Shown: positions 4,538 through 52,993, counted from the first letter of the stretch. The stretch: DNA of 64,000 bases from an uncultured Gammaproteobacteria bacterium (GCA_964356705.1 CAYHIN010000001.1:3066-67065), one strand, 5' to 3'. Numbers and translations: made by a program. The notes: generated from the sequence alone by a model not told the origin.

Positions 4538-6358
4538 TTACTTTTTTTCTATATTAAACAATCCACTCTTCACAGCCAGTGTCCCCGGCGCCCGCAAATT
4601 AAAGGCTTTCTTAAAGTTAACCCCCGATATCACCACTTCTCCTCTATTAGTCTGCAGTATCACCTGATCCGTATACCCGTTACTACTGTGTTTCACCGAC
4701 ACGCCCGAGACAGAAGTCACCCTTCCCCCATGTTTATCCGCCTCTTGTGCCATCCTGTCCTTAGACCACGGATTATCAGATCCTCCGTAGCAGGACCGCA
4801 CATCTTCCGGAAATACTCCGCTCATATCCCCGCCATTAGAAACCACAATCGCCGCATTTATCATGTCCGAAAATTCATCCATTTTGAGCCACGGATGAGA
4901 TCTCCCACACGTCTTTCCCGATCGGTCCTTGTACCAGCCTTTATAAAACCAGGGCGATCCTCCCACCTTTTCCCAAGCCCCCGATGCCCAGTTAGTCCAG
5001 TCAGAAGTGGTATCCCAAAACCCAGGTGTAGTATGTCCAATACTCGTGTAGCTGTCTTGATGTCCTCCCGAAGTCGATGCGTACCAAGTATTTACTATTT
5101 CTCCACTAGTCTTTGAGACCACGATCTCTCCTTCCGTTTGTGACACCGCGTCTCCCCATCTTCCCGGATTTCCAGATTTACTACTACTGTATACCTGGCA
5201 CGCCTCGGTCGTACATATCGATCCATTCGCGTTCTGATTACCTATTCTCCATCCTGTATAAGACAGCGCGTATGACCGGGCCGCAATCGCCTGGGCTTTC
5301 ATCGCCTCAAATCCCCCCTGATCCGCCCACGAGGTCGGCATCTCGGCAATCCCTCTCAGATATTTGCCTTCAAATGCCAGCGTCCCGGCACTAGTTTTGA
5401 TTACACCCGGCATACTCACTTTTCTGATTTCTACGTTTCCATAGTAGGCTTCCAATATTTGTTTGTAGTTTTGTCCCGACTTGGCCCGACCATATGCCCC
5501 GTATTGACTCATGCCTTTATAGTGCGGCGCCCCAAATGAAAACATCGCAAATGCCGGTGAGAATCCCGGATTATAGTCGGGTCTGGCAGCCGGATCATCA
5601 GCCAGTGGCACATCCCCTACCGACGTCGCATAAGTTCCAGTTTTAGAAGCCAGTAGTGACTGTTGCCTGGCGGTAAGTGACGCGATTTTTCCTCCTAGAT
5701 CCGACTGATATTTACTCGCTTTGTCCACTTCCACTTGCAAAAAAGCTGCTTGTTTATCCACTCTCGTCTTCAGCCCGTCCAGATTTGTTTTTTGAGTTTT
5801 GAGACTTGTGGCTTGGGCATTGAGATTTGTTATTTCTCCTCCCACCGACACGATCAGTTCCCGGTCTTGTCTAGCTAGTTTTTCTCGGTAAAACAGGTCC
5901 TTAAAAAATTCCGATGCACTCTTCGCCGAAAATAGCACCATCATCATCGACTGTTCCCTTCTTCTTATATAGTCTTGTTTTAGTTTAGCCGCCATCAGCT
6001 GCTCTTTTACTCCGACCTTCACTTCTCGCTCAAATATGTCTTTAGTCAGTTTATCTAGCCGTGTATCTAGTCCCGTTATTTGGGACTTGAGATTTGTGGT
6101 TTGGGATTTGAGCCCATTCAACTCTTTCACATTTGTTGAGTTGGCTTTGGATATCGCATCCAGTATTCCCGAGTATTTACTAATACACCCCGATATCACA
6201 CTAGAGTCCGACAGCTTGCTCGGATCATCGCACTCCTCCGCCCACACTCCTCCCACGCCCAGCATACAAAAGGCAAGGAAAAACAATACATAATACTTTA
6301 TACGTAATACGTGATACACAAGTCTCGGCATTGACTGTATTTTACATGTTAAACTCAA
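4538..6358 (-). CDS. SpoIID/LytB-domain protein with N-terminal coiled coil
   Basis: Signal/TM, long coiled coil, then the EAMKAQAIAARSYALSYTGW motif typical of SpoIID/LytB amidase enhancers. Contains family B and D repeat insertions. Confidence 0.6.
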   Translation of the reverse strand: MSLTCKIQSMPRLVYHVLRIKYYVLFFLAFCMLGVGGVWAEECDDPSKLSDSSVISGCISKYSGILDAISKANSTNVKELNGLKSQTTNLKSQITGLDTRLDKLTKDIFEREVKVGVKEQLMAAKLKQDYIRRREQSMMMVLFSAKSASEFFKDLFYREKLARQDRELIVSVGGEITNLNAQATSLKTQKTNLDGLKTRVDKQAAFLQVEVDKASKYQSDLGGKIASLTARQQSLLASKTGTYATSVGDVPLADDPAARPDYNPGFSPAFAMFSFGAPHYKGMSQYGAYGRAKSGQNYKQILEAYYGNVEIRKVSMPGVIKTSAGTLAFEGKYLRGIAEMPTSWADQGGFEAMKAQAIAARSYALSYTGWRIGNQNANGSICTTEACQVYSSSKSGNPGRWGDAVSQTEGEIVVSKTSGEIVNTWYASTSGGHQDSYTSIGHTTPGFWDTTSDWTNWASGAWEKVGGSPWFYKGWYKDRSGKTCGRSHPWLKMDEFSDMINAAIVVSNGGDMSGVFPEDVRSCYGGSDNPWSKDRMAQEADKHGGRVTSVSGVSVKHSSNGYTDQVILQTNRGEVVISGVNFKKAFNLRAPGTLAVKSGLFNIEKK

Positions 6359-7359
6359 ATCACATGCGCAGATTTTTTCTCCTTACGACTCTTTTTTTAT
6401 TTTTATCAGTCACCCAAACTCAAGCCCAACAGTTTAAATGCATAAAAACCCCAAATTGTGATCCGTGTACAAACTGGTCAACCGCAGCAAACTGTCTCAA
6501 CACTGCCACAAACACAAATCTTTGTAATACCGGGGTAAATCCTTGTACTGCTTTCTCAGCCAGCTGTCCAGACAACGGCTCCCAGCTGGATCAGTTCCAA
6601 GTCCAAACATGTTCCACTGTTCTTCCTGCTTGTTCTAGTCCAAACCTATGTCTCTCAGAAAGCGCCTGCTCAAATCCAGTCTCTGGATTTAGCTGCGGTG
6701 GAAATCTCATATGCTGTGCTCCACCAGGAGAGCCCACTTCTACTCCAGTTCCAACAACCGCTCCTACTGCTTGTGAGACATTTTCCGGACCGTACAACAA
6801 CCCCTTTGTCTGTATGTCTCCCGGCGGGGCAGTCTCGGGAAGTTACGATTGCAATCCAGGCGGATCATCTCCACTGTTTGACCCAACTGCTCCTCCAAAT
6901 AGTTATGACAATGCCTGCGGATGTGCCGCCGCTACAAAAAGTTCATGTTCTCTCATTTGTTGCCACAGTAACAGCACCGTCGGACCACCTGGCACTACGG
7001 GCGTCCCTCCATACCAACCCTCCTCATTATGCGTCCCTCCTAACGGATCTACTTATACAGGTGTAAAAACTCCCTTTGGCTGTCTTCCTTATACTGGAGC
7101 CGATGGTCCAGCAAAAACGACCGTGGTCGTCCTCTCAAACTGGGCCGTTGCCATTTCCTCCAGCATCGCCATCTTTATCATCCTCTTCGCAGCACTTCAG
7201 ATAGCCACAGGCAGTGGTGACCCCAAGCGCATCAAAGCCGGCCAAGAACTCCTTTTCTCCGGTCTCGCCGGCCTATTTTTGATAAGCCTGGCCATTGTTG
7301 TTCTCAACTTTTTGGGAGTAACCATCTTAGGTCTAGATCTTTTGGGCTTCTTCGTCTGA
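6331..7359 (+). CDS. T4SS pilin-like protein (VirB2/TrbC-type C-terminal domain) with N-terminal Cys-rich Pro/Thr-rich extracellular extension
   Basis: Signal peptide, then about 220 aa with more than 30 Cys. The C-terminal 110 aa are paralogous to the downstream pilin array (TM - SGDPKRIKAGQE - TM). Confidence 0.6.
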   Translation: MTVFYMLNSNHMRRFFLLTTLFLFLSVTQTQAQQFKCIKTPNCDPCTNWSTAANCLNTATNTNLCNTGVNPCTAFSASCPDNGSQLDQFQVQTCSTVLPACSSPNLCLSESACSNPVSGFSCGGNLICCAPPGEPTSTPVPTTAPTACETFSGPYNNPFVCMSPGGAVSGSYDCNPGGSSPLFDPTAPPNSYDNACGCAAATKSSCSLICCHSNSTVGPPGTTGVPPYQPSSLCVPPNGSTYTGVKTPFGCLPYTGADGPAKTTVVVLSNWAVAISSSIAIFIILFAALQIATGSGDPKRIKAGQELLFSGLAGLFLISLAIVVLNFLGVTILGLDLLGFFV

Positions 7360-7378
7360 TCGTGCTACACTTTAACTC

Positions 7379-7723
7379 ATGGCCAGTCCACTGTGTGTTC
7401 CATCAGGTGCAACCGGAAATCTAGGTGTCTCTACTCCTTTTGGCTGTCTACCCTTTGGTGGCAATGCAGGTCCTGCTACCCCGATGATCACTGTTTTAGT
7501 AAATTGGAGCGTGGGTCTAGCCGCAGGCGTAGCTCTCCTCACTCTTATTTATGCCTCTTTTCAGATCGTCACCGCCGCAGGTGACGCCAAGCGCGTCCAA
7601 GCCGGCCGCGAGTTAGTAACTGCCAGCATCGGCGGTCTGATCTTAGTCGTCATGGGTATAGTTATCCTTAATTTTTTAGGTGTCAGCGTCCTAGGATTGG
7701 ACGCTCTAGGCTTTAAGATATAA
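7379..7723 (+). CDS. VirB2/TrbC-like T4SS pilin paralog
   Basis: Two TM helices separated by the loop AAGDAKRVQAGRE. Near-duplicate of the C-terminus of the 6331 ORF. Confidence 0.6.
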   Translation: MASPLCVPSGATGNLGVSTPFGCLPFGGNAGPATPMITVLVNWSVGLAAGVALLTLIYASFQIVTAAGDAKRVQAGRELVTASIGGLILVVMGIVILNFLGVSVLGLDALGFKI

Positions 7724-7733
7724 TTGTAAGCAC

Positions 7734-8036
7734 ATGCGCACACTCGCCCAAATCAGCATTCCCCCTCCAACTGGTCTCAGATTTTCCAATTACAACGATC
7801 TTCCCGCCGATCTCTTTACCCGCATTTTATTATTCGCCATGGCAGCCAGTGGCCTTATATTTTTTGTTCAGCTCATCATGGCCGGTTTCAATCTCCTCAC
7901 TTCTTCCGGTGACCCAGCCAAGATCCAGTCAGCCACCAAAGCTCTCACCAATTCTCTCACCGGGCTTATCATTGTCATTAGTACTTATTTCATCGCCCAG
8001 ATTATCCAAGCCATTTTGGGCCTCCAGATAGTCTAG
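7734..8036 (+). CDS. VirB2/TrbC-like T4SS pilin paralog
   Basis: TM - SSGDPAKIQSATKALT - TM. Confidence 0.6.
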   Translation: MRTLAQISIPPPTGLRFSNYNDLPADLFTRILLFAMAASGLIFFVQLIMAGFNLLTSSGDPAKIQSATKALTNSLTGLIIVISTYFIAQIIQAILGLQIV

Positions 8037-8039
8037 CTT

Positions 8040-8363
8040 ATGGCCAGTACACCTATAAACAGTATTTTTACAAATCATCCCTCAGCAGGTATTGTGGCCG
8101 CCACTCCCGCCTCACTCATCTCATATCTACTCCCAAACATTATGGCCGCGGCTGGCATCATCTTCTTTCTCATGATTCTGGGCGGCGGCTTCATGATGGT
8201 CAAAAACGCCGGTGGCAGCCCAAGTGCCCAAGATACCGCAAAAGCCAGGTCAGCAATTACTATGGGCATCATTGGTTTCTTGCTTGTAGTATCCGCCTAC
8301 TTTATACTTCAGATAGTCCAAGCCCTAACCGGAGTCAACTTTATAATTACTCCCATTTTTTGA
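8040..8363 (+). CDS. VirB2/TrbC-like T4SS pilin paralog
   Basis: TM - AGGSPSAQDTAKARSAIT - TM. Confidence 0.6.
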   Translation: MASTPINSIFTNHPSAGIVAATPASLISYLLPNIMAAAGIIFFLMILGGGFMMVKNAGGSPSAQDTAKARSAITMGIIGFLLVVSAYFILQIVQALTGVNFIITPIF

Positions 8364-8366
8364 CAG

Positions 8367-8729
8367 ATGAAGCTACTCGCCCAACAATTCGGTACTGTTG
8401 AAAATCCCTTTCTACCCAAATATTACAATGTTCCCGGATATATAGGGTTTTCCCAGGGCCAAGGTCTTATCATTCTTCTCAATAATCTTGTCAAATTCAC
8501 CATCGTCCTTGCGGGCCTCTACACTTTTTGGAACATCATCGCCGCAGGCTTTATGTTCATGTCCGCGGGTGGCGAAGCAAAAAACATTACCAAAGCCTGG
8601 GACAAGATCTGGCAATCACTCATTGGTTTGTTATTAGTAGCCGCTTCCTTTATACTTGCGGCCGTATTCGGATATCTGATCTTTGGTGATACTAAAGCGT
8701 TATTACAACCTCGAATATTTACCCCATGA
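8367..8729 (+). CDS. VirB2/TrbC-like T4SS pilin paralog
   Basis: TM - SAGGEAKNITKAWDKI - TM. Confidence 0.55.
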   Translation: MKLLAQQFGTVENPFLPKYYNVPGYIGFSQGQGLIILLNNLVKFTIVLAGLYTFWNIIAAGFMFMSAGGEAKNITKAWDKIWQSLIGLLLVAASFILAAVFGYLIFGDTKALLQPRIFTP

Positions 8730-9100
8730 AAAACTTACTCGCCCAAGGTACTCCTATTGGCAATTTCGATGGCCTAGGACCTCTGGGAAACACCAGAAAT
8801 CTATATCTGGGTGGGGCAAATACAGGCGGTGCATTTGAAAAAGTCATCTCTTTGGTAATCGGTGTTCTTACTGTCTCTGCAGGGCTTTGGTTTCTTTTCC
8901 AAATCTTCACAGGAGCTATCTCCTGGATATCCAGTGGTGGGGACAAACAAGCCGTCCAAAACGCTCAAAAAAGAATGTCTCACGCCATAATTGGCTTGTT
9001 CGTCTTGGTCGCAGCTTACGGACTCATAGCTACGGTCGAGCTTGTCTTTGGACTTCAGATATTAGATTTTCAAGGTCAGTTTTTAAATCTTCGCCCATAG
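8726..9100 (+). CDS. VirB2/TrbC-like T4SS pilin paralog
   Basis: TM - SSGGDKQAVQNAQKRMSHAIIGL - TM. Confidence 0.6.
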   Translation: MKNLLAQGTPIGNFDGLGPLGNTRNLYLGGANTGGAFEKVISLVIGVLTVSAGLWFLFQIFTGAISWISSGGDKQAVQNAQKRMSHAIIGLFVLVAAYGLIATVELVFGLQILDFQGQFLNLRP

Positions 9101-9102
9101 AT

Positions 9103-9438
9103 ATGTTGCTTGCCAGAATCATCAACCCCGCTCTAAACAGTAAAGTCGGCAACACTACGATCCAGGGAGATGGTCCTGGTATTTTGCAGCTGTTTTTAAG
9201 AAACTTTATCGATATTGCCCTCGGCACCGCCGGCGTCATCTTTTTCTTCATGTTATTACGTGGAGGTTACGAATATCTCACCGCCGGCGGAGACAAAGAG
9301 GCCGTCCAAAAGGCAACGAAGAGACTCACCACTTCGTTCATTGGTATTGCAATCATCTTCTCTCTTTTTGCCCTCGTCTTTATTGTTGAGGCATTATTTG
9401 GCATCTCGCTGTTGCAGATAAACATTCCCACTATATGA
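9103..9438 (+). CDS. VirB2/TrbC-like T4SS pilin paralog
   Basis: Start taken at the internal ATG (MLLARIIN), because the upstream part of the 8887 ORF overlaps the previous gene. TM - AGGDKEAVQKATKRLT - TM. Confidence 0.55.
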   Translation: MLLARIINPALNSKVGNTTIQGDGPGILQLFLRNFIDIALGTAGVIFFFMLLRGGYEYLTAGGDKEAVQKATKRLTTSFIGIAIIFSLFALVFIVEALFGISLLQINIPTI

Positions 9439-9764
9439 ACCTTCTTGCCCAAGCCACCATCAATCTCACAAACCCCTTATCACCTTATAGAAACCTCTTC
9501 TCTCTTCGTCCCTCTAGTTTAGTTTCAGCCGCTATCAGTCTCCTCCTTGGGGCAGCAGGTGTCACGGCCTTCATTTATCTTCTCGTGGGCGGTATCCAGT
9601 GGATTACTAGCAGTGGCGACAAAGAAGGACTGGACAAAGCCAAGAAAAAAATTACCCACGCTCTCATCGGTTTGGCGATCGTCTTCTCAGCTTACGCTTT
9701 GATCTTCATCATCCAAGCATTGTTCAACATTAGTGTCATCGGTGTCAATATTTCTCCTATTTAA
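9435..9764 (+). CDS. VirB2/TrbC-like T4SS pilin paralog
   Basis: TM - SSGDKEGLDKAKKKITHALIGL - TM. The 3' 80 nt are nearly identical to the next paralog. Confidence 0.6.
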   Translation: MNLLAQATINLTNPLSPYRNLFSLRPSSLVSAAISLLLGAAGVTAFIYLLVGGIQWITSSGDKEGLDKAKKKITHALIGLAIVFSAYALIFIIQALFNISVIGVNISPI

Positions 9765-9821
9765 TTCCTTAGTACTTTGCACTTAGCTCTTAGCACTATA
9801 TAATAAACTTAATGAAGGGAG

Positions 9822-10256
9822 GTGAATAATCAAGTGAGCAAAATACAAAAAATAATTCAGTTTGGGACCGCTTTGGGTACAGTATTGGCAGTCAACCCTG
9901 CTTCCGTTCTGGCCCAAGGAGCTTTTGATCCCACAGACAATGTAAATATCGCTCCCGAAGCAGGCGTTTTCAGCAAACTACCTGGTCTTCGTCCGTCCGC
10001 TTTCATTAGTGGAGCCATCAGTTTCCTGCTCGGAGTAGCAGGTGTAGTCGCCTTTATCTTCCTACTTTGGGGAGGCCTACAGTGGATCCTCGCCGGTGGC
10101 GACAAAGAAGGTACCGAAAAGGCTCGCAAGAAGATCACCTCCGCTCTCATCGGTTTGGCGATCGTCTTCTCAGCTTACGCTTTGATCTTCATCATCCAAG
10201 CGTTGTTCAACATCAGTGTCCTTGAAGTGTCTCTGAAACCACTAGGTAATCTCTAA
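9822..10256 (+). CDS. VirB2/TrbC-like T4SS pilin paralog with clear signal peptide
   Basis: Signal ALGTVLAVNPASVLAQG, then TM - AGGDKEGTEKARKKITSALIGL - TM. Confidence 0.65.
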   Translation: MNNQVSKIQKIIQFGTALGTVLAVNPASVLAQGAFDPTDNVNIAPEAGVFSKLPGLRPSAFISGAISFLLGVAGVVAFIFLLWGGLQWILAGGDKEGTEKARKKITSALIGLAIVFSAYALIFIIQALFNISVLEVSLKPLGNL

Positions 10257-10335
10257 ATTACCTTATGGTAGATGAATCAATTCCGTCATTCCGGACGAAA
10301 GTCTAGTTAGACTTCCGGAATGACGGCACATATCT

Positions 10336-10626
10336 ATGCCAGCCAAACTTAGCAATTTACAAGATGTATTTTCCAACGTCTTGGTTTCTGTTCTCTCGCT
10401 CATAGGTCTTGTGACTTTTGGCATGCTTTTGTGGGGCGGAGTCCAATATCTTACGGCGGGCTCCGATAAGGAGGCCGCAGGCAGGGCCAGAAACACGATT
10501 ACCTACGCTCTCATTGGTCTCATCCTCGCCATTTCCTCCGTCATGATCATCAATCTTTTGGGCACCTTCTTAGGTCTGGATTTCAGCACGTTCAACATTT
10601 GTCTCCCCGGGACCACTTCCTGCTAA
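10336..10626 (+). CDS. VirB2/TrbC-like T4SS pilin paralog
   Basis: TM - AGSDKEAAGRARNTITYALIGL - TM. Preceded by a strong stem-loop. Confidence 0.6.
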   Translation: MPAKLSNLQDVFSNVLVSVLSLIGLVTFGMLLWGGVQYLTAGSDKEAAGRARNTITYALIGLILAISSVMIINLLGTFLGLDFSTFNICLPGTTSC

Positions 10627-10640
10627 TATATAATAGTTCC

Positions 10641-13600
10641 ATGCTCCGTAAATTTTTCTTTTTCCTCATCGTATTTCTTCTCACGATCCATATTTTCCAT
10701 CCCCCAAGCACCCAAGCAGATTACCCAAACGACTGTGCTCTCGATTATCCCATTTGTCACACCAGTATTCCTCCAGGGACACCCGTAGGCACTTGTCTCA
10801 ACCACAGTGTCATAGGCTGCAACACCTCTTCCGGAGTACCGGGAGTTTGGTGCTGCCCCTCCTCATTTATTTTCCCTTCACTCACACCGACCCCCCCATC
10901 TGTCCCCACTTGCATCGCCAATGGCAATTATTGCGTAGCCACAAATGTCGCTTGTGATCCCGGCCACACCAGAGGTCAAGGTGGCAATTGTGAAACTGGA
11001 AAAATCTGCTGTGCCATCACCCTTCCTACTGTGCCTCCTCCCGGCGGCCCTCCGGGTCCCATTCCCCTACCCACCTATCCGACAAATTTTAGCCCCCTAG
11101 AATATCCCTGCAACACGACCACCGACGAAGAGTTTCATCCCCTACGTCCCTATCCGGCTTCTCCCTGCGACCCCCTCATTCCCAAAAAACAGGAGCCCGA
11201 TTTTCTTTCCTTCGCCTGCGGCAAGAGCCTAAATACTCTGGGAGAGTATCCCGTCAGCCGCAGTTTTACCCAAGCTCAGTTAGACGCCATGTCCCCCATT
11301 TTTCAAAACTACGGCGAGCCTTACCGTTGCGGCGCCCAGGTCTGTATCCGCAAACGCTCCGTTTTTGATATTGCCCTCGATTTATCGAGTGCCAAGTTGC
11401 CAATTATCGGCAACACCCAAGATCCCCTCGACGACGCCACCAAAGTCAACAATTATCTATCTTGGTATCTGGCCGGCACCAATCCCACCTGGCTCGAGGA
11501 CCTAAATTTGGCCACCCCAGCCCAAAACGTCAACTCCCAGTGTATCGGCACCTCACTGGCCACCTTCATGAACACCGTTGTATCTGGGACCACAAATTTA
11601 CGCAACATCCGCCTCACTTCTCCAGCCTTCAATCTTACCAATCCCGCCGAGCAGGATATTTTTATCGCCATGAGCCAGGCCGGAGCCAACTTTGCAGATA
11701 TCGACGCATTTGCCGGCAACACCTACACTCTAAATGGCGTAGCCGCCTACGATTGGGTCATCAGTCCCTCATTTCGCGGAGCCGACGGCAAAACCTGGAA
11801 AGAAAAATTCACAAGTTTCAACAAAGGCATTATCTTTACCGAATTCGGGGATTTTGCCACTTTTGACAACCCTCCCGGATCTCCAAATCGCGCCTCGGTC
11901 ATAAGCGCCATGCGCCAAGAATTCACCAATACCGCAGGCGATGGTGTCGTCAAATCCATCAACTATTTCAACGCTTTTGGTGGCAATCCCCAATTTATAG
12001 GCCACCAATTGTCAATCTCAGAGCTCCAGGTTATTACCAGCTCAAATTATTCAAAAAGCGGGGTCAATTCCGCCCAGGGAGTCAATCGCGATTTTCCCCC
12101 CAGAGTGGGCAGTGCCGGTCTCAAGTGGAGCGTGGAGATCATCACCTCGCCCGGTGATGAGACAGGTGCTATCGAATCCATCAACGCCGCCCATCGCGCA
12201 GGTGTCATCCCCATTATTCGCCCTTGTTACGGCAATTCCTGTGGTTTTGCCGATCCAGTTGTATATGTAGATTTCATCAGTCGGGTATCCCAGCGTGTGA
12301 CCGATCAGTCCCGCGAGATTTGGTTCATAGCCGGCCCAAACGAGCCCGCCGGTGAGCATTGGGCCGCCCCTCTTTGTGGCACTGCCGGCCAGCCCGTAGC
12401 CAGTATCGATTCTTTCTTGACTTACGCCGGTCCTATTCGTAAGCTCCTACCCCAGTATTCTCTGGATACCATCCGCTACGTTCTGGCTACCAATCAAGGG
12501 CGCAATGTCCACAATTATTTACTCGATACTCAAGGCCGCCGTATTTCCCAAGTTCCATCCTTCATTCGTCTCTATTCTCCCACCGATATCTGGACCAAGC
12601 TCTTCCAAAGAGTTCCCCTCGCCACTATGGAAGACGTCGTGGGCGAGGTCACCGTGGGCCTCATTACCTCTCCTAGATCCGACGGCTCATCTCCCCAACC
12701 ACCCGACGTTTATGTTGTAGACCCCAGCCACCCCGATGCCATGCGCCTTACCATCAAAGACGGATCGGACTCCCGCCTCTATTTCCCTCATCTCAAGACC
12801 GTAAGTTCCTTAGTCGAAGTCCTAAATGCTATCTCGAGACCCAAGCTCTCCCAAAACTATCGCCCCGATGAGCGAAACGTCACCCAGTATATCAACGAAC
12901 ACCAAGGTATCGATGACTCCACTCCTATCCAAAGAAAATCCAACGAAGGCAATTACACCGGACTCACTCGCAACACCGAAATTAGAGAAGGCGAGCCCGC
13001 CCCTACAGCTCTCTTTGGCCAAAATGATCATTTTGAGTTTGACCAGCGCTGCGAGCTCACGACCACCCAGGACGCCGTAGGTGACAATCTTTTTGGCCAG
13101 ACTATCAATGGTCGCCTCGCCTATACACATGATCTAAAGTTTGACCCCGTCGTCCAACCCAATGCTTGTCTTCCAGATTTTGCCGTCTGTACACCTGGCG
13201 TCGACGTTTGTTGTGACAATGCCGTATGCAGCAACGTCACTCTTGGTGGTATTGATTACGGCGACCGTTGTCACGGCGGCAATCCCAATTCCAGTTCCAT
13301 TCCCACTGAAGCTCGTGTCGCAGTCTTTACCAAGACTCCTCTCATCGATCGCTTTTATGGCGATCTTATTTCCAACTCCAACTCTTTCTTTAGACGTTTC
13401 GTCAATTGGTACGACCGGTCCACCGGCGGCCCAGATACAACGATTAGGTCAGGTTCTCTTACTTTTCCCGCCAAGACCCAAGTCGGTTATACTGCTACAG
13501 CCCCCATTCCTCCACCCGTAAGCCCCGAGACAGCCCCAGGCAATCCCAAAGCCGGAGCCGGCAACAATACCGGCGGCGCCGAGATTTATTTCCCCAGGCT

Positions 13601-15128
13601 CGGAAGTCTGGCCGATTATTTCCTAGGTGGTCCCACCAACGAGAGATTAAATCTCCAAAAGATGTTCCGTCCCAAAAACTTTGGTAGTCTTATCGGCCCG
13701 GGTGGTGCCGGCATTTTGGCCGCCTGCCAGCCGTATCTCTCCAATTTCCCCGGATCCATTACCGTAAACATCCAAAATCCCAAAAACGTCTTCTCCAAAG
13801 TCGGCGACAGTATTACCGTTTCGCCTAATTTCCTAGATGCCTTTGCCGGAGCATACAACCTCGGTAGTCATACCGGCCTTCAATCGGTAATCAATTTCTT
13901 CACTCCCTTATCTTTCACGGAAAATACCCTTGCCGCAGGCATCGGGTGGAACACCCAGGACCTTATAAATAATAATTTTTCCGCTCTAGAGTCTGAATAC
14001 ACCCGTACCAAGCCTGCCGTGGCCATTATCATGATCGGCACCAACGATTCCGGTGGCTCCAACCAAGTTGTGGTCCCAGTCTACACCGATCGTTTAGAAC
14101 GCATCGTAAATTACACTGTTAGCAAGGGTATAATTCCCATCCTCAGTACTCTCCCCCATCTCACCAACGCCAATCCCCAGCACAATACCAATACCGAATT
14201 GCTAACCGGAGCCATCAAAGACGTTTCGACCAGACTGGGTGTTCCCCTCATGGACTACCGCCTCGCCACCGAGCAAATAAATACTGCTGCACGCAACTGG
14301 GGCATTAGTACTGACAACATCCATCCTTCCGTCGGCGGTGGCAATGCCGGCGATCTTTCCGATTTACCCATGAGTGAAGGCGGCTACAATGTCCGAAACT
14401 TCGTCTCCCTTTGCGCCCTAGATGCAGTTTGGAAGACCAGACTGGGAGGAGATAGCTCTAGTAGTGGAGACTGCTTCACGGCAGCCCAACCCGTTACCGC
14501 TTCCTGCTCGGCGCCCGGATCCACTCCCCTAAACTATGCTTGTCACACCAATCTTGAGCTCAAATCCATAATCCAAGAGTCAGCAAATAAGTTCGGGGTA
14601 AATCCCAGCGTCCTCTTAGGTATTCTTAGTGTCGAAACCAGGAATGGTATTTTTGGAATTACTTCAGGTGAAGTGAGACGCCACTCCACTTCCACCTCAC
14701 AAACCGGCTTTACTCCATATATTTGTCAACCAAATTCTTGTGGCGCCATGGGAGCCATGCAGCTTTTGACTGGCATTGGCGTCCAGCCCAGTTGTTCTCA
14801 AGCCTACGGTATCAACAATTGGGCTCTATATGGTTCGGCCGTCGTAGAAGCTTGCAAAGCCCCCTCTGGTTACGGACCAAATCCCGGTAATATCCGAGAC
14901 TCAATATACGCCGGAGCAAAAATGATCGGCAGCTTCGGCCAGAACTCAAATTCCGAAGCCGGAGTCAAAGAAATCGGTCGCAGATATTTTGGCAACGACA
15001 CTTCCCGTTTTGATCTCTTTGTAAACTTGGATTACATAAACGACTGTGTCCCAGGCTACACCACACCTTCCTCAGCTCGCAGCATGACCTATGGTGAATA
15101 TCTTTGGGAAGTAGCCCGAGTTAGATAA
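10641..15128 (+). CDS. giant secreted cell-wall hydrolase: Cys-rich N-domain, SGNH/GDSL esterase domain and C-terminal SLT/lysozyme-like domain
   Basis: Start taken at MLRKFFFF (signal peptide). GDSL blocks are VGDSIT, MIGTNDSGG and DNIHPS. SLT-like motifs are QESANKFGV...LSVET...AMGAMQLL. The ORF track starts at 10599, overlapping the previous gene. Confidence 0.65.
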   Translation: MLRKFFFFLIVFLLTIHIFHPPSTQADYPNDCALDYPICHTSIPPGTPVGTCLNHSVIGCNTSSGVPGVWCCPSSFIFPSLTPTPPSVPTCIANGNYCVATNVACDPGHTRGQGGNCETGKICCAITLPTVPPPGGPPGPIPLPTYPTNFSPLEYPCNTTTDEEFHPLRPYPASPCDPLIPKKQEPDFLSFACGKSLNTLGEYPVSRSFTQAQLDAMSPIFQNYGEPYRCGAQVCIRKRSVFDIALDLSSAKLPIIGNTQDPLDDATKVNNYLSWYLAGTNPTWLEDLNLATPAQNVNSQCIGTSLATFMNTVVSGTTNLRNIRLTSPAFNLTNPAEQDIFIAMSQAGANFADIDAFAGNTYTLNGVAAYDWVISPSFRGADGKTWKEKFTSFNKGIIFTEFGDFATFDNPPGSPNRASVISAMRQEFTNTAGDGVVKSINYFNAFGGNPQFIGHQLSISELQVITSSNYSKSGVNSAQGVNRDFPPRVGSAGLKWSVEIITSPGDETGAIESINAAHRAGVIPIIRPCYGNSCGFADPVVYVDFISRVSQRVTDQSREIWFIAGPNEPAGEHWAAPLCGTAGQPVASIDSFLTYAGPIRKLLPQYSLDTIRYVLATNQGRNVHNYLLDTQGRRISQVPSFIRLYSPTDIWTKLFQRVPLATMEDVVGEVTVGLITSPRSDGSSPQPPDVYVVDPSHPDAMRLTIKDGSDSRLYFPHLKTVSSLVEVLNAISRPKLSQNYRPDERNVTQYINEHQGIDDSTPIQRKSNEGNYTGLTRNTEIREGEPAPTALFGQNDHFEFDQRCELTTTQDAVGDNLFGQTINGRLAYTHDLKFDPVVQPNACLPDFAVCTPGVDVCCDNAVCSNVTLGGIDYGDRCHGGNPNSSSIPTEARVAVFTKTPLIDRFYGDLISNSNSFFRRFVNWYDRSTGGPDTTIRSGSLTFPAKTQVGYTATAPIPPPVSPETAPGNPKAGAGNNTGGAEIYFPRLGSLADYFLGGPTNERLNLQKMFRPKNFGSLIGPGGAGILAACQPYLSNFPGSITVNIQNPKNVFSKVGDSITVSPNFLDAFAGAYNLGSHTGLQSVINFFTPLSFTENTLAAGIGWNTQDLINNNFSALESEYTRTKPAVAIIMIGTNDSGGSNQVVVPVYTDRLERIVNYTVSKGIIPILSTLPHLTNANPQHNTNTELLTGAIKDVSTRLGVPLMDYRLATEQINTAARNWGISTDNIHPSVGGGNAGDLSDLPMSEGGYNVRNFVSLCALDAVWKTRLGGDSSSSGDCFTAAQPVTASCSAPGSTPLNYACHTNLELKSIIQESANKFGVNPSVLLGILSVETRNGIFGITSGEVRRHSTSTSQTGFTPYICQPNSCGAMGAMQLLTGIGVQPSCSQAYGINNWALYGSAVVEACKAPSGYGPNPGNIRDSIYAGAKMIGSFGQNSNSEAGVKEIGRRYFGNDTSRFDLFVNLDYINDCVPGYTTPSSARSMTYGEYLWEVARVR

Positions 15129-15302
15129 ACTCCTCCGCCCTTGACGCCACTCCCTGAATTCAGTATTAATTCCGGGACCACCCTCCCCAATTTCACTACA
15201 AAATCGTCCATAAGCTCTCCATTGCTTCGTTTCTTAGTTCTTAGTAGTTAGTCCTTTGCACTTCGTCCTTAGTGCTGATATTGTTAATGTATAATACAAG
15301 CC

Positions 15303-16847
15303 ATGCCCAAAATAAAGAATTTCCTATCTTCTCTCCTTCTCTGTCTTACGCTCTCCTCCTTCTTTCCCTACTTTGCATTAGCCGTGGATGGTCCTTGGTA
15401 TAACCAAAATCCCCAACAATTCGGCCAAAAAGTCTTTGGGGGCGATCAAAACGAAATCTTTGGCGAACGCTATACCTTTGCCCAAGTTAACTGGATAATA
15501 AACAGTTTAAATTTGATATTAAATCCAACCAACGGCCAAACCCCGGACGCCATAAAAGGTATCGTTTGTGCCATCATCCCTCTTATCTCTCCAGGCTCTC
15601 CCTGCCCCATTGCCTCTACGCCTGAAAATAAGTGGATTGCTTACTCACAACTAGGTATAAATGGGCTTCTTGTTGGGGGCATCACCGAAATTACCGCTTC
15701 CCCACCAGCATCCGGAATTTTAGAAATAGGCGAGACTCTTGCAAAATTTGACCCTGCAACTCCCGTCCAGGCCCAAGGAGGTTATGGATTTGAAAGCTTA
15801 AACGGACTCAGAGTCATTTGGGGCGCTTCGCGCAACATGGCTTATCTCATTATGGTGATTTTGCTTATCGCCACCGGCTTTATGATCATGTTTCGAGTCA
15901 AGATCAATCCCCAAACCGCAGTCTCACTTCAAATCATGATTCCAAAAGTTATTTTCACTCTACTCCTAGTTACCTTTTCCTATGCAATAGCTGGGCTCGT
16001 AATCGATCTTGTTTATGTTGTCCTCGCCTTCGTAATCTCTGGACTCACGCTGTCCCAAGCAATTACCCCTCTCAGTCTTCCTGGTTCAGTGGGCTGGTTC
16101 TTTACCCCAGACTTTGGCAAGATATTCGGCTACTATCTTTTGTCGTGGCTCGTACAGATAGCAATCGGCGGAATTGCCGGTCTAATTGGAGTGGGCCTTG
16201 CTACACTGATGCCACCCTTAGCTCCATTTGTTGGATTACTAGGAACAATCTTTGCTCTTATTGAAATTATTTTTGCATTTGTACTTCTCTGGCTTCTATT
16301 TAAAGTTTGGTGGATGATGGTCAAAACCTATTTAACACTCATGTTTTTGATAGTTATTGGTCCTTGGCAAATTATGTTGGGCTTACTTCCCGGACAACAA
16401 GGTTTTGGAGGGTGGTTCAGAAATATTATAGCCAATGCCTCCGTATTTCTAACTGTTCCTATTATGTTTTTACTCAACATGTTCTTCTGGCCGATGAGTC
16501 CTTTCAGTCCGTTAGGTCAAGTAAATGGTGGAGCATCAGATTTACCCAGTTTTCCTCTCTTCGCTACAAAAGGCGGAATTTTTGGATTCGCAGTAGGCTT
16601 TGCCATATTATCGATGATCCCCAAAATTGCTGATATTATTAGAGACGCTCTCAAGATCCCACCATTCAAATATGGCTCAGCTCTAGGCGAGGCTCTAAGT
16701 CCACTTAAGATGGTAACCTCTCCTGCGGGTGGAGCAATCTCAGCAGGTGGTAGCAACGAACTAAAGGGTGCTACCACTGGATTACAATATGCCTCTGGCG
16801 GCATACGTCAGGCTGCTGGAGACTGGTTGAAAGGATCTATCAGGTAA
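15303..16847 (+). CDS. VirB6/TrbL-like polytopic T4SS membrane protein
   Basis: Signal peptide, about 180-aa extracellular domain, then at least 6 TM helices. Position between the hydrolase and VirB4 matches ConG/VirB6 in Gram-positive T4SS. Confidence 0.5.
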   Translation: MPKIKNFLSSLLLCLTLSSFFPYFALAVDGPWYNQNPQQFGQKVFGGDQNEIFGERYTFAQVNWIINSLNLILNPTNGQTPDAIKGIVCAIIPLISPGSPCPIASTPENKWIAYSQLGINGLLVGGITEITASPPASGILEIGETLAKFDPATPVQAQGGYGFESLNGLRVIWGASRNMAYLIMVILLIATGFMIMFRVKINPQTAVSLQIMIPKVIFTLLLVTFSYAIAGLVIDLVYVVLAFVISGLTLSQAITPLSLPGSVGWFFTPDFGKIFGYYLLSWLVQIAIGGIAGLIGVGLATLMPPLAPFVGLLGTIFALIEIIFAFVLLWLLFKVWWMMVKTYLTLMFLIVIGPWQIMLGLLPGQQGFGGWFRNIIANASVFLTVPIMFLLNMFFWPMSPFSPLGQVNGGASDLPSFPLFATKGGIFGFAVGFAILSMIPKIADIIRDALKIPPFKYGSALGEALSPLKMVTSPAGGAISAGGSNELKGATTGLQYASGGIRQAAGDWLKGSIR

Positions 16848-16851
16848 AACT

Positions 16852-19629: not shown

Positions 19630-19705
19630 TGTCCAATTATACCGTACCCAGGCTAATTTGGCCGCCGGCCATAAAACAACAAGCCGTGCCCCAAAACATC
19701 AGTTT

Positions 19706-19927
19706 CTAATTGCTTATAAGTCTTCCATCTTCAAACCAGCTTGCTTCAAAATACTCCTTAAAGTGTTCTTCTTCAGGTCTTTGTTGTGCATTGGCACAGT
19801 AGTCCTCAAATTTCTCGCTGCATGAAACATGCTGTACATGACTACCTATCTGTCGTTTTTTCACAAAACCAGCTCTTTTCAGAATTTTTAACATCTCTTT
19901 CGGTTTCATCGAGGGCAGATTTCCCAT
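19706..19927 (-). CDS. HicA-like mRNA interferase toxin (divergent C-terminus)
   Basis: KPKEMLKILKRAGFVKKRQIGSHVQH matches the HicA/YcfA N-terminal motif. Confidence 0.45.
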   Translation of the reverse strand: MGNLPSMKPKEMLKILKRAGFVKKRQIGSHVQHVSCSEKFEDYCANAQQRPEEEHFKEYFEASWFEDGRLISN

Positions 19928-20196
19928 ACACTACACTGCACTGCAAATCTTGGTCCAGTCACATTTACTGGAACCACAAAACTGTTCTCATCAGGCTCAG
20001 GAATCTCCTCACCATCCTCCTGCAATACTCGCAAGTATCCACCAATCGCATCTCTCGCCATCTCGATGGCCAACTCATAAGTATCACCTTCAGTCACAAG
20101 TCCTGGCAATTTAGGCACAGTCACAGTGAAACCACCCTCCTCACAAGGTTCAAAAACCGCATTATATTTCAGTACTTTTACTACACTTTTACTCAC
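19906..20196 (-). CDS. HicB-like antitoxin
   Basis: YNAVFEPCEEGGFTVTVPKLPGLVTEGDTYELAIEMARDAI matches the HicB/UPF0150 N-domain. Overlaps the HicA-like ORF by 22 nt. Confidence 0.55.
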   Translation of the reverse strand: MSKSVVKVLKYNAVFEPCEEGGFTVTVPKLPGLVTEGDTYELAIEMARDAIGGYLRVLQEDGEEIPEPDENSFVVPVNVTGPRFAVQCSVWEICPR

Positions 20197-20279
20197 ATCA
20201 TCATTTTAACATTTTAATACAATTAGATTAATCCCAATCAAAAAACAATAGTTAACATTTCGGATATAATCAAATCAAT

Positions 20280-35651: not shown

Positions 35652-36069
35652 CGACTCAATTTCAATATTTACCGATGGCGGCTCTCGTGGCAATCCAGGT
35701 CCAGCAGCCAGCGCCTTTATCATCTACGACTCATCAAACACTACTCTTCATCAACATGGTTTTTACCTAGGGATAGCGACAAACAACCAAGCCGAATACC
35801 AAGCCGTCATAGAGGCACTGAAGTATATACGTGATACTTTATACGAAATACATAATACAAACTTCTATCTCGATTCCGAGCTCGTCGTCAAGCAGCTCAG
35901 AGGCGAATACAAGATCAAAGATCCAAATCTTCAAACCAAATCTCAAGAGATCAAAAATATCATTTTCCTTCTTCCTTCTAATTCAGTTCGTTTTACTCAC
36001 GTACCTCGTGAACAAAATTCCGCCGCCGACGCACTTGTAAACAAAACCCTCGATAGCTTGTCATCCTGA
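35644..36069 (+). CDS. rnhA: ribonuclease HI
   Basis: IFTDGGSRGNPGPAA...NNQAEYQAVIEAL...SAADALV. The stop codon lies inside a family E repeat. Confidence 0.85.
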   Translation: MTNDSISIFTDGGSRGNPGPAASAFIIYDSSNTTLHQHGFYLGIATNNQAEYQAVIEALKYIRDTLYEIHNTNFYLDSELVVKQLRGEYKIKDPNLQTKSQEIKNIIFLLPSNSVRFTHVPREQNSAADALVNKTLDSLSS

Positions 36070-36289
36070 CACTGAGCGAAGTCGAAGTGGAAGGACCCAG
36101 TCCTCATTAAGAAAAAGACATCAAATTCCCCGCGTTTCTTAGCCAGCGGTAGTTTCACGTTTTATGTACTGACATAAATAGAATTGATGCAGGCATAAAT
36201 CATCGACAGTTACAAAGCTAAGAAATTCGTAATGACACAATATATGTAGATCTTCTACATTTACCGCTACTTGGTATACAATCAATAGG

Positions 36290-38524
36290 ATGCCCAAATT
36301 GTTTCTAATTCCCGAAATTGAGTCCCAAAATATTCAAGTTTTTCTCAATATCGAGCACCATCCTTTAGCCATCGAAATCACAAACCAGCTCTCAAATCTC
36401 AAGCATGTTCAGCTCATAAAAAAATCATCAGACGCCGACGTCACTATTTATCTTGTAGGTTTTGATTCCCCTTCTCTTTCCGAGACCTTGTCCCACACCT
36501 CAGATCTCTATGAACATCTCAAGCAGGTCAAGTCAGATCATCACAAGTTCATTTTGGTGGTAAAAAACCCCGCGTCTCATTTGTCTCGAACGGCAATTAC
36601 TCTTACCAATCAGTTTGCTCACAACTATGACCTAAATCATGAGGTGTTCGAGTATGATCACACCGTCTCCACATCTCAATTGGCCGAGACCATTATTCGC
36701 AAATTTATATATGGACATTCGACCCCTCACCAAGAACCTCGGTCAAGCTCAATAAAGACACCTACTGCAAAAGCCATTCCCCTCGTTTCCAAGCCTCAAT
36801 ACATGATACTTAATACGTTATACCTAATACTCGCTCTTGCCACTCCTTGGCTACTTTCGATTCTATTGTTAGTCTTTATGTATCCACTCACCTCATGTCT
36901 TCACAGATACTCTGTATGTACTAGCGTGACCGACGTTAGTCTTTCAGCCTTTCGATATACTTCCCGACTTAGCCCTGGTTCTTCCGAGCTCGCCACTCAG
37001 ATCGGCCTTCCGCTGTCGCAGTACAAAGATCTCATCATTACTTTAAAAAAACTAGATCGTCTGACCACCAAATCGGCCAAGAGATCCTCCGCGTTTCTAG
37101 CCAGCCTCTTCACAACGAGACCTGCTCCTCAGACAGCAGAAATCACAGCTTCTCTAGAAGAGACCGACCATTTGCTAAATCAGGTTCAAGCCGACCTTAG
37201 GTCAATATATCTTGCCACACCCAATCACATAAGATCCTTCGAGAGTCTAGCCGTAGGCGCAGGGGAATCTCGCCACACTCTCAGTCTTCTTATCCCAAAC
37301 ATTACAAGTACATTGAGAAATTTCACCAGTGGCAAAAAAACTTATCTAGTGGCTTTGCAAGACAACTGGGAGCTCAGAGGCAGCGGGGGACTGATAGAAG
37401 CTTTTCTCAAAGTCGATATCTCACATGGCCAGATCGATCAGTTTCAGCCTTTTTCAACTCGCGATACAGATAAGCTTCTCACAGGCACTGTCACCACCCC
37501 AGCCGATTTTCAGGATCTGACCGACCAGACTCAATGGTACCTGCGCGACGCCTCATGGGATCCCAATATCTCATCCACGCTGACCAAGATTGCTTGGTTT
37601 GCCCAAAAAGAGCTCAACCAACCCTTCGATGGAGTCATCCTAGTGGATCTAAACACTCTCAAAGAGTTGGTCAGGATAATTGGCTCCGTCCAGGTGGGGG
37701 AGTCTAAAGTTCCAGTCACCGCCCAAAACTTTTCCGCGATATATCAGTCCCAACTAAATTCATCCGATGATTACAACAAATATCTCACCACTCTTCTGAG
37801 TGCCATCTTTGCCCAATTTAGTAATATGGACGATCTTAAATATCAAAAAGTAATTCAGCTTTTTTATACCCAAGTAGTCACTGGCCAGGTCTTCATCACC
37901 GGTCTCGCAGAAGGGGAGAAGGGGCTTCCGGAGTGTCGCAGTTTTCTGATATGTTCCGTAGACTATGCCTACCCCGTATCATCAAACATCACCGGTTCCA
38001 AGACCAATCTTTATCTGACCAGATCTCATACCGCCTCTGTTAGTCTTTCAGATTCCCAAAACACTTCTCTTCACACTTTTTCATATCGTTATTCACCTGA
38101 GGCAAATTCTTGGGTAGGCCAAAACCACCAAGAATACCTGCGGCTATATTTACCAGACGACGTGCTCTCGGACTATCAAGTTTCCATTGACGGAGTAGCC
38201 ATTCCAAAAGACTCGATACATATCGGAGTCTCCCAAGGGTCAAAATATTTAGGAGTCAGTTTCACAGTAAATAAGTTGCAAGATGTCAAAGTCCAATTTA
38301 GCTATCACACTCCCATGCCCAAGGCCAGCCAGTTCCACTATCAGCTCGACATTCCCAGCCAGCCCGGCGTAGTAGGGGACCAGGTAAAAGTAGAATTAAA
38401 CTATCCTCCTACTTGGGCCGCCTTAGTAGACAAAGTCGCCTCAGTTGCTGATGCTGGCCGTCTCGAGTATAATTACGCCCATCCCGAGAAGTTCCAGCTC
38501 AATATTGATTTCACAAAACCTTAA
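36290..38524 (+). CDS. large hypothetical protein with internal TM (possibly DUF4012-like)
   Basis: 744 aa with a TM around aa 185-205. Contains a family D repeat insertion. Confidence 0.5.
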   Translation: MPKLFLIPEIESQNIQVFLNIEHHPLAIEITNQLSNLKHVQLIKKSSDADVTIYLVGFDSPSLSETLSHTSDLYEHLKQVKSDHHKFILVVKNPASHLSRTAITLTNQFAHNYDLNHEVFEYDHTVSTSQLAETIIRKFIYGHSTPHQEPRSSSIKTPTAKAIPLVSKPQYMILNTLYLILALATPWLLSILLLVFMYPLTSCLHRYSVCTSVTDVSLSAFRYTSRLSPGSSELATQIGLPLSQYKDLIITLKKLDRLTTKSAKRSSAFLASLFTTRPAPQTAEITASLEETDHLLNQVQADLRSIYLATPNHIRSFESLAVGAGESRHTLSLLIPNITSTLRNFTSGKKTYLVALQDNWELRGSGGLIEAFLKVDISHGQIDQFQPFSTRDTDKLLTGTVTTPADFQDLTDQTQWYLRDASWDPNISSTLTKIAWFAQKELNQPFDGVILVDLNTLKELVRIIGSVQVGESKVPVTAQNFSAIYQSQLNSSDDYNKYLTTLLSAIFAQFSNMDDLKYQKVIQLFYTQVVTGQVFITGLAEGEKGLPECRSFLICSVDYAYPVSSNITGSKTNLYLTRSHTASVSLSDSQNTSLHTFSYRYSPEANSWVGQNHQEYLRLYLPDDVLSDYQVSIDGVAIPKDSIHIGVSQGSKYLGVSFTVNKLQDVKVQFSYHTPMPKASQFHYQLDIPSQPGVVGDQVKVELNYPPTWAALVDKVASVADAGRLEYNYAHPEKFQLNIDFTKP

Positions 38525-52940: not shown

Positions 52941-52944
52941 ACAA

Positions 52945-52980
52945 CCAAATTAGCCCAATTGGCCTAATTAGTCCAATTTA
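52945..52980. repeat. tandem 9-mer element family F (CCAATTNGNCC units)
   Basis: Second copy at 52587-52618, inside the four-helix-bundle CDS. Confidence 0.6.
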
Positions 52981-52993
52981 CGCCCCCTCCCTC

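Follow-up and report, generated by a model that had tools for sequence, protein, structure and literature searches.

Short, co-oriented heptanucleotide repeat arrays with invariant cores and variable spacers in a chromosomal region of Candidatus Amesbacteria

A 64-kb stretch of DNA from a groundwater bacterium with a tiny genome (GCA_964356705.1, CAYHIN010000001.1:3066-67065; hereafter the window) carries short tandem arrays of 7-nt units, among them six copies of an ATAC-heptamer repeat to which a preliminary description of this DNA had drawn attention. We are highly confident that these elements are short tandem heptanucleotide arrays of the kind known as short tandemly repeated repetitive (STRR) sequences or long simple sequence repeats (LSSR). 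Their co-orientation, their location inside genes including essential ones, the conservation of their cores between species and the replacement of one family by another at orthologous slots are unusual for heptanucleotide repeats. At a rough probability of 0.4, we propose that the arrays are strand-specific cis-acting heptad platforms, born by slippage and kept by selection at the DNA level; confidence in the mechanism is moderate to low.

Judging from DnaA, DnaN and YidC, the window belongs to the clade Candidatus Amesbacteria within the candidate phyla radiation (CPR; Microgenomates). The closest species representative in the genome collection was an Amesbacteria metagenome-assembled genome with a DnaA identity of 60%, and the YidC homologues carrying a source name were labelled Amesbacteria. 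A European Nucleotide Archive contig from Hainich groundwater (L001) differed from the window by 12 single nucleotide polymorphisms (SNPs) across the 15.6 kb compared. For comparisons between species, the congeneric relatives B (L327) and C (L329) were used, with DnaN proteins 74% and 75% identical to that of the window and a nucleotide identity of about 70% each; L082 and L328 are 100% identical to L327 and therefore give no independent evidence on relative B. Gene order is conserved in all Amesbacteria loci fetched, from a type IV secretion system (T4SS)-like cluster through dnaN, dnaA, rnpA, yidD and yidC to jag, wzy, rnhA, the DUF4012 gene, the L25 gene and leuS. All results refer to this one window and to the corresponding syntenic region in relatives, all within a single skew domain.

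In a lag-identity scan of the window, period 7 gave 33 positive stretches, merging into 23 arrays, compared to 0.6 in Markov-1 random sequences. The neighbouring periods gave 4 vs 0.7 (period 6), 1 vs 0.1 (period 8) and 3 vs 0 (period 9). Of the arrays reported by Tandem Repeats Finder (TRF), about 20 had period 7 and almost none another period; the program assigned period 7 (or 14) to every ATAC array but one (c5, recovered by pattern search only) and to about 15 others. In all, the window holds approximately 24 period-7 arrays per 64 kb. Period 7 alone was enriched in both the TRF and the shuffling results, in agreement with the propensity for 7-nt periodic elements inferred in the preliminary description. 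When the arrays, 4% of the sequence, were masked, the excess of lag-7 autocorrelation was gone. Thus, the signal stems from discrete elements, and a diffuse 7-nt periodicity of the whole sequence was ruled out. The arrays consist of 3.5-6 imperfect units, each with an invariant core of 3-4 nt and about three variable bases. They were grouped into the families ATAC+N3 (six arrays), YTTG/TTTAGG+N3 (seven arrays, at 2204, 3104, 5784, 6080, 28759, 30625 and 34763), CTTNGCN (9768, 35498 and 42556), CACTACT/TCAC+N3 (32847) and ATTC+N3 (52294), and there are several singletons besides.

The six ATAC copies that had been noted in intergenic and coding DNA were recovered in full: the pattern ATACNNNATACNNNATAC, which contains ATAC three times at 7-nt spacing, gave 17 overlapping matches with at most one mismatch, falling into six loci, where 0.10 matches were expected. 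All six arrays lie on the + strand, are 28-37 nt long and comprise four to five units of ATAC followed by three variable bases, mostly A, T or G. Array c1 (6286-6317; units ATACATA, ATACTTT, ATACGTA, ATACGTG and a terminal ATAC) is located between or within the 5' ends of two divergent open reading frames (ORFs), a SpoIID-like one (-) and a pilin-like one (6331-7359, +). It had been placed at the N-terminus of the SpoIID-like protein; in the longest SpoIID-like ORF it does lie in the 5' end, and it is coding only if TTG 6358 or ATG 6331 is the true start. Array c2 (28180-28207), formerly placed upstream of the stop of dnaN, lies outside this gene; it fills a 41-nt spacer bounded by two convergent stop codons, those of ORF 27724-28167 and of dnaN. 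The placements of the other four held. Array c3 (29505-29539) starts 12 nt past the dnaA stop in the dnaA-dnaN spacer, and c4 (33115-33148) makes up the whole spacer from yidD (32908-33114; Pfam YidD, E = 1e-23) to yidC (ATG 33151), ending 2 nt ahead of the ATG. Array c5 (35827-35858) is in frame in rnhA, where it encodes residues 62-72 (IRDTLYEIHNT) in an indel-prone loop following helix A, and c6 (36799-36830) is in frame in the DUF4012 ORF (QYMILNTLYLIL) at the start of a hydrophobic segment; no array was present at the c6 site in B or C.

The 21-mer quoted earlier for these copies, ATACATAATACTTAATACAAG, occurs exactly at 28187 and 33115, with two more matches of 2-3 mismatches in 29505-29539 (0 expected). 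Arrays c2 and c4 thus have an exact 21-mer in common, together with four spacers in identical cyclic order, but sharing of a higher-order element beyond ATAC+N3 was marginal in a shuffle test of spacer order (p = 0.06). The 40-nt flanks of the six copies have nothing in common, and neither conserved ends nor target-site duplications were found. Their predicted DNA folding was no better than that of shuffled sequence (z -0.9 to +0.8). DnaA-box-like 9-mers flank c3 at 29483 and 29542, with a third at 29438; these are three one-mismatch boxes in 110 bp (29438-29550), the window-wide count of 20 vs 17 expected being not above chance.

Comparison of retained orthologous arrays in the window, B and C revealed a sharp difference between cores and spacers. 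Over six slots in three species, with only arrays still recognisable in both partners included, 1 of 112 core sites was variable compared to 25 of 78 spacer sites (Fisher p = 3e-10). This contrast extends to coding arrays, whose cores fall in each of the three codon positions. Retained arrays were 86% identical, whereas their 40-nt flanks were 75% identical. They also kept their length, c3 and c4 showing no change of unit number across ~30% divergence: c4 is equally long in the three species with 20 of 20 core bases invariant, and the 35-nt ATAC stretch of c3 differs at 2 positions from that of relative C. Two substitutions were found in 3 of 12 changed spacer triplets, which is about as many as independent changes at spacer sites would give. 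In near-identical strains the arrays were fully stable; none of the 12 SNPs between the window and L001 fell into an array and no array indels occurred, and the 9 SNPs in 20.8 kb between L085 and L086 were likewise outside arrays, with no indels. Because the 4-base cores remain unchanged between species even inside essential genes, the arrays look like constrained signals rather than junk.

An orientation bias, for which the preliminary description had proposed a check, was clear for arrays of the same family. Among pairs of similar arrays, the ratio of same to opposite orientation was 21:2 in the window, 6:0 in L002 and 7:0 in L083, whereas in heptamer-rich loci of other organisms it was about 1:1 (L026, 11:13; L153, 21:26; L137, 10:17; L147, 6:6), as it was in the cyanobacterial locus L070, where similar arrays occur in both orientations. 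Orientation tracks the DNA strand and not transcription. The ATAC arrays keep their orientation in + genes and in the minus-strand dnaA-dnaN operon, six YTTG arrays lie inside minus-strand genes and one inside wzy (+), CTTAGC arrays occur in + genes and in tsaD (-), and the CATTGRA arrays of L083 are found in genes of both directions. Base or k-mer skew was ruled out as the cause for the TTTGGGA family, since all (7 of 7) TTTGGGA-type arrays are on the + strand although TTGGGA is the rarer form there outside arrays (9 occurrences vs 59 for its complement). The encoded peptides can, in our view, explain which family occupies which gene direction: TCCCAAA read from the minus strand yields Pro/Lys/Ser/Gln linkers, e.g. 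in DnaA domain II and the DnaN loop, and the opposite reading yields hydrophobic peptides and was seen only in the membrane protein Wzy.

The strand asymmetry of the region is pronounced. The GC skew of the window is -0.2 to -0.4 throughout, and the GC3 skew follows the DNA strand (+ genes, -0.43; - genes, +0.40). An origin would normally be expected at the junction where dnaA diverges from rnpA-yidD-yidC. No sign change of the GC skew was seen at this junction in the window or in any of the related Amesbacteria loci, so the origin would lie far from dnaA or the replication geometry would be unusual; the extreme skew that does not reverse at dnaA hints at unusual replication geometry. For c3 as a candidate oriC unwinding element, the skew thus shows no change of sign, its values being -0.2 to -0.4 to the left and to the right of dnaA.

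Most arrays lie within genes: of the 23 arrays from the scan, 17 overlap ORFs, and c5 from the pattern search is coding, too. Genes bearing arrays include dnaA, dnaN, rnpA, rnhA, tsaD and tsaE. All coding arrays examined are situated in hypervariable, indel-prone segments between conserved blocks (DnaN residues 181-192, DnaA 83-97, RnpA 64-74, two Wzy loops and RNase H 62-72). Beyond the ATAC family, and all read on the + strand, a TTTG/TTTAGG-family array (2204-2240) and a TTTAGGA array (3104-3134) lie inside ORF 1938-3434 (-), and a TTTTGAG array (5784-5815) and a TTTGGGA-type array (6080-6110) inside the SpoIID-like ORF (-). A CTTAGCA array (9768-9798) occupies the spacer between two pilin-like genes and a TTCTTAG array (15229-15256) another intergenic spacer. 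The hypervariable loop of dnaN (-) carries a TTTGRGA array (28759-28792), and the domain II linker of dnaA (-) carries a TTTGGGA array (30625-30666), in which four runs of at least three G are present on the + strand (30631-30660) and a G-quadruplex is possible. Further downstream follow a CACTACT array in the variable loop of rnpA (32847-32877), an AGAGTTT/TTTAGAG array in loop 1 of wzy (+) (34763-34804), a CTTAGC/CTTCGC array in the C-terminal loop of wzy (35498-35530), an ACTGACA/ACAACT array near the N-terminus of ORF 41730-42329 (+) (41817-41853), a CTTAGC array inside tsaD (-) (42556-42591), an ATTGTCC array inside tsaE (-) (45516-45557) and the ATTC+N3 array in ORF 51617-52432 (+) (52294-52318).

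At other orthologous slots the array had been replaced by one of about equal length that belongs to another family of a shared repertoire. The rnpA loop holds CACTACT in the window, ATTAAAC in B and CTTAGC in C. In both relatives, TTTAGAG of Wzy loop 1 is replaced by ATAC, ATAC of the rnhA loop (c5) by TCAC/ACTCAC, and CTTAGC of the Wzy C-terminal loop by ATTC. The dnaN loop carries YTTG in the window and in C, with invariant TTG cores, and ACTGACA in B. The c2 spacer is occupied by ATAC in the window and B and by ATTC in C, and the c3 spacer by ATAC in the window and C and by a hybrid of an ATAC remnant and TTTAGAG in B. Wzy loop 1 contained a period-7 array in 6 of 6 Amesbacteria compared, the RnpA loop in most of them, and TsaD repeatedly. 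In some relatives the spacers inside an array are homogeneous (CACCGAA four times in L083, CTAT+CCA in L085).

Period-7 arrays are, with high confidence, a clade-wide trait of Candidatus Amesbacteria. A period-7 excess was present in six related loci (L002, L083, L084, L085, L327 and L329), with 5-13 arrays per 13-21 kb each and few arrays of periods 6, 8 or 9. The genome-wide propensity for 7-nt elements suggested earlier therefore holds for the window and for every Amesbacteria locus fetched, 'genome-wide' being an extrapolation from 64 kb and syntenic loci. The window, B and C have the families ATAC, ATTC, YTTG, CTTAGC and TCAC in common, and more distant Amesbacteria possess units of their own (CATTGRA in L083, CGCTATT in L084, CCACTAT in L085, TAGTAAA in L002). 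Among 80 dnaA loci from different species, dense period-7 arrays were found in three, namely the Amesbacteria locus L002, L026 from another member of the Patescibacteria and L070 from a cyanobacterium with classic STRR; most other bacteria and CPR lineages were without period-7 enrichment at this locus. Among related Microgenomates, L003 and L005 share the skew or the synteny but are devoid of arrays. Metagenome and viral scans used the loose pattern ATACNWDATACNWDATACNWDATAC, and no locus similar to the window was among the matches listed for the metagenome scan. On unrelated environmental contigs (L153, L137, L162, L131 and L147), heptamer arrays were packed very densely, as many as 14 in 5 kb, and their families often form inverted pairs, the classic STRR pattern, unlike the single orientation in Amesbacteria. 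Our literature search found no report of such repeats in CPR bacteria, Amesbacteria included.

It is 35 years since heptanucleotide repeats became known in bacteria; they have no accepted function, and polymerase slippage is the default view. In cyanobacteria, STRR arrays are mostly intergenic. Such repeats are described from cyanobacteria, Xanthomonas, Beggiatoaceae and some Bacteroidetes. Polymerase slippage has been invoked for their excess, and a function is not established (PMC4692102, PMC4679880). Like the STRR of Calothrix, Nostoc and Anabaena, the Amesbacteria arrays have exactly 7-nt units, at least three of them head-to-tail, at many dispersed, period-7-enriched loci and in several lineage-specific families. 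STRR arrays, however, are longer, near-perfect and mostly intergenic and occur in both orientations or as inverted pairs (about 1:1 in L070), whereas those of Amesbacteria are short, imperfect, built from core and variable spacer, co-oriented and mostly situated in ORFs including essential genes. The heptanucleotide excess described by Mrazek in 2007 was attributed to the DNA length held by the polymerase (as summarised in PMC4679880 and PMC4692102). That work reportedly also noted that repeats within coding DNA tend towards unit lengths divisible by three (summary in PMC4679880). The over-representation of period 7 vs neighbouring periods, for which slippage is a plausible origin, is common to both, but the LSSR excess is a statistical one of perfect repeats, whereas the Amesbacteria arrays are common in coding DNA and have cores conserved between species.

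The G-quadruplex heptamers GGGAATC/GGGGAYT of Xanthomonas and Nostoc likewise recur between the same gene pairs in related species with varying length and sequence, and the TTTGGGA array at 30631-30660 with its four G-runs resembles the Xanthomonas GGGAATC repeats. Those heptamers are intergenic, G-rich and in some cases arranged as inverted pairs (PMC4692102), whereas ATAC, ATTC, CTTAGC and TCAC cannot form quadruplexes. The TAACTGA repeats of Beggiatoaceae also comprise 2-6 heptamer copies, and a position near the start codon as in c4 is typical there; readers of the S1, Csp or CsrA type with a footprint of ~7 nt were proposed for them (PMC4679880). TAACTGA is one dominant unit, mostly just upstream of starts and oriented with the downstream gene (PMC4679880). 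Such start proximity fits c4 and possibly c1, but most Amesbacteria arrays are intragenic or past stops, strand-oriented and of many families. In behaviour only, the arrays resemble Chi sites and the FtsK- and SpoIIIE-orienting sequences (KOPS/SRS), which are species-specific short motifs, strand-oriented regardless of genes, present in coding and non-coding DNA and selected at the DNA level. These are single 5-8-mers of one or two kinds per genome, read by RecBCD/AddAB and FtsK/SpoIIIE, respectively, whereas the Amesbacteria arrays are tandem, of several families and have a putative reader only. The ORF repeats of Borgs are reportedly perfect, recently formed and frame-keeping; the Amesbacteria arrays differ from Borg repeats in having 7-nt units, in being old and in their apparent constraint at the DNA level. 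What the two have in common is that repeats in ORFs yield variable, probably loop-forming or disordered peptides (PMC9879509).

Slippage alone would explain the period and the homogeneous spacers of some relatives. It leaves the invariant cores beside diverging spacers, the constant length and the skew-opposed orientation unexplained, and for this reason we favour constraint at the DNA level. The arrays would originate by 7-nt slippage or duplication where the gene-dense genome tolerates them, that is in short spacers and hypervariable protein loops, and protein tolerance would set where they can stay. Retention would be due to selection acting on the DNA, rather than on protein or RNA, for a core every 7 nt in one fixed orientation. 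Most economically, such an array would be a strand-specific cis-acting platform. It would be read at the replication fork, where the DNA is single-stranded, or by a DNA motor with a fixed direction; its putative reader, a protein or oligomer, would contact ~4 bases once every 7 nt, in the manner of OB-fold, cold-shock or KH-type modules. We regard it as rather unlikely that the heptad arrays represent a new class of replication-strand-specific CPR chromosomal signals, interchangeable between families and kept inside essential genes; the tandem 4-nt cores, read on one strand, might then e.g. guide a DNA translocase or provide sites for loading or priming on the template of the lagging strand.

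Several points weigh against a strand-specific platform. Its main weakness is that at least five unrelated cores coexist and are interchangeable at slots, so several readers, or a reader of repetition itself, would be needed. Since seven orthologous slots differ in family between species, no particular sequence is needed at a given place. The chromosomal spacing is irregular, with gaps of 8-13 kb, and the array sites are simply wherever proteins tolerate arrays. The comparison of retained arrays has some ascertainment bias, as only those recognisable in both species entered it. Orientation relative to replication is not separable from orientation as such, because the loci represent one syntenic region in one skew domain. 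No candidate binding protein was identified, and heptanucleotide repeats have no proven function in any organism (PMC4692102, PMC4679880).

The main rival, to which we give only slightly less weight than to the platform, is that the arrays are functionless, neutral or near-neutral by-products of a clade-specific replicase that slips or template-switches by 7 nt. They would accumulate wherever selection on proteins permits, and would expand in a single orientation because repeat instability depends on which strand is the lagging-strand template. Heptanucleotides are the most over-represented class of long simple sequence repeats in many bacteria (PMC4679880, PMC4692102), and slippage fits well with arrays restricted to spacers and hypervariable loops, with family replacement at orthologous slots, with the lack of any link to gene function and with a GC3 skew of ~0.4 in magnitude, which points to strongly asymmetric replication. 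The homogeneous spacers in L083 and L085 arrays indicate concerted evolution, as it would produce. However, slippage homogenises whole units and does not predict 1/112 variable core sites next to 25/78 in the spacers, whose changes resemble independent point substitutions; c3 and c4 kept their unit number across ~30% divergence, near-identical strains showed no length polymorphism, and the arrays are without secondary structure that could make instability orientation-dependent. There is little chance, in our estimation, that the arrays are small mobile cassettes, selfish families copied into permissive sites or existing arrays via single-stranded DNA at the fork, be it by a dedicated enzyme such as IS200/IS605-type peel-and-paste transposases with tetranucleotide targets or by ectopic template switching. 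A small set of families does recur at non-orthologous sites in three species with slots switching family, the c3 slot of B holds a hybrid of an ATAC remnant and TTTAGAG, c2 and c4 share the exact 21-mer and the cyclic order of four spacers, and the strictly uniform orientation is reminiscent of the preference of single-stranded DNA transposition for the lagging strand. Yet terminal hairpins and inverted repeats are absent (fold z-scores about 0), copies have neither common flanks nor target duplications, no transposase-like gene was seen near arrays, sharing of spacer order is marginal (p = 0.06), and re-copying would overwrite spacers, which diverge by point changes instead. Family members were not spatially clustered, being no closer than under random labelling (permutation p = 0.24), which also excludes local copying between neighbouring arrays; hairpin-type mobile elements (MITE/REP-like) were excluded by the lack of stable hairpins, inverted repeats, conserved ends and target-site duplications.

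An action at the RNA level appears very unlikely in general. The arrays would in that case be stretches of mRNA, unstructured and poor in G, to which proteins of the S1, cold-shock, KH or Rho type bind and so adjust translation initiation or termination; an action of this kind was proposed for TAACTGA of Beggiatoaceae. This could account for c4, located 2 nt ahead of the yidC ATG in place of any Shine-Dalgarno sequence, for the start of c2, c3 and c4 0-12 nt past stop codons and for the C/A/U-rich, G-poor character of most arrays in the sense of the local gene. It is at odds with the occurrence of every major family in both transcription senses but in one DNA orientation, as exemplified by c3, the wzy array at 34763, the tsaD array at 42556, the dnaN-loop array of B and the arrays in -/+ genes of L083, as well as with the position of most arrays deep within ORFs and with the lack of structure or of any Rfam family. 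At the yidC start, an RNA-level role may nevertheless apply to c4. A promoter or terminator role was rejected for c2, c3 and c4, as no predicted site coincides with them; one promoter-like match overlaps the rnpA array. Finally, phase variation, with changes in unit number switching genes on and off, has next to no likelihood. A 7-nt unit would shift the reading frame, and some arrays are located in envelope genes or their spacers (wzy, SpoIID-like, pilin-like), but the units are imperfect, arrays reside in the essential single-copy genes dnaA, dnaN, rnpA, tsaD and tsaE, array indels were absent in both pairs of near-identical strains (window/L001 and L085/L086), and the lengths of c3 and c4 are conserved between species. 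Contingency loci were excluded on these grounds.

Some further features of the region were recorded. The T4SS-like cluster (6331-28167) directly adjoins dnaN, is syntenic in all Amesbacteria loci and contains several pilin-like genes, a PrgI-like gene, a VirB4/TraG-like ATPase gene and ORFs of 1509 and 1279 aa; the former matches a GDSL lipase domain only, the latter has no Pfam match. With the covariance models of Rfam 15 at the gathering score, the sole matches in the window were a tmRNA gene (1049-1458, -) and one tRNA gene (60470-60540, -), neither of which overlaps an array. A Shine-Dalgarno-like 4-mer was present 4-22 nt upstream of 9 of 60 putative starts, taken from the 60 longest ORFs, for which the longest-ORF start may be wrong; this pattern suggests that initiation in the host may be largely Shine-Dalgarno-independent. 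A 25-nt repeat, GTCATCCTGAGCGCAGCGAAGGATC, occurs in both orientations at 34438-34462 (+) and 35059-35083 (-), and also in L082 at 1-27 and about 1345-1375. Its second copy in the window lies in a wzy insertion of ~30 nt that is absent from B and C, and similar copies were found in spacers of relatives. Two direct copies of an element of ~50 nt (52566-52615 and 52932-52985), in which AATTRGYCC is repeated four times after TTCCCATAC with an internal 9-nt period, flank ~320 bp at the 5' part of ORF 52401-52940 (-).

For the biology of these bacteria, the arrays create lineage-specific peptide segments in the otherwise conserved DnaA, DnaN, RnpA and RNase H, and they mark hypervariable sites useful in strain typing. 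With short, strictly oriented arrays, alignable slots and a sharp contrast between core and spacer that is measurable across many metagenome-assembled genomes, Amesbacteria offer a compact and clean test case. Should this contrast and the rule of orientation extend across whole genomes, they would give direct evidence of heptamer repeats as selected signals at the DNA level and would point to a strand-specific reader in organisms not yet culturable.

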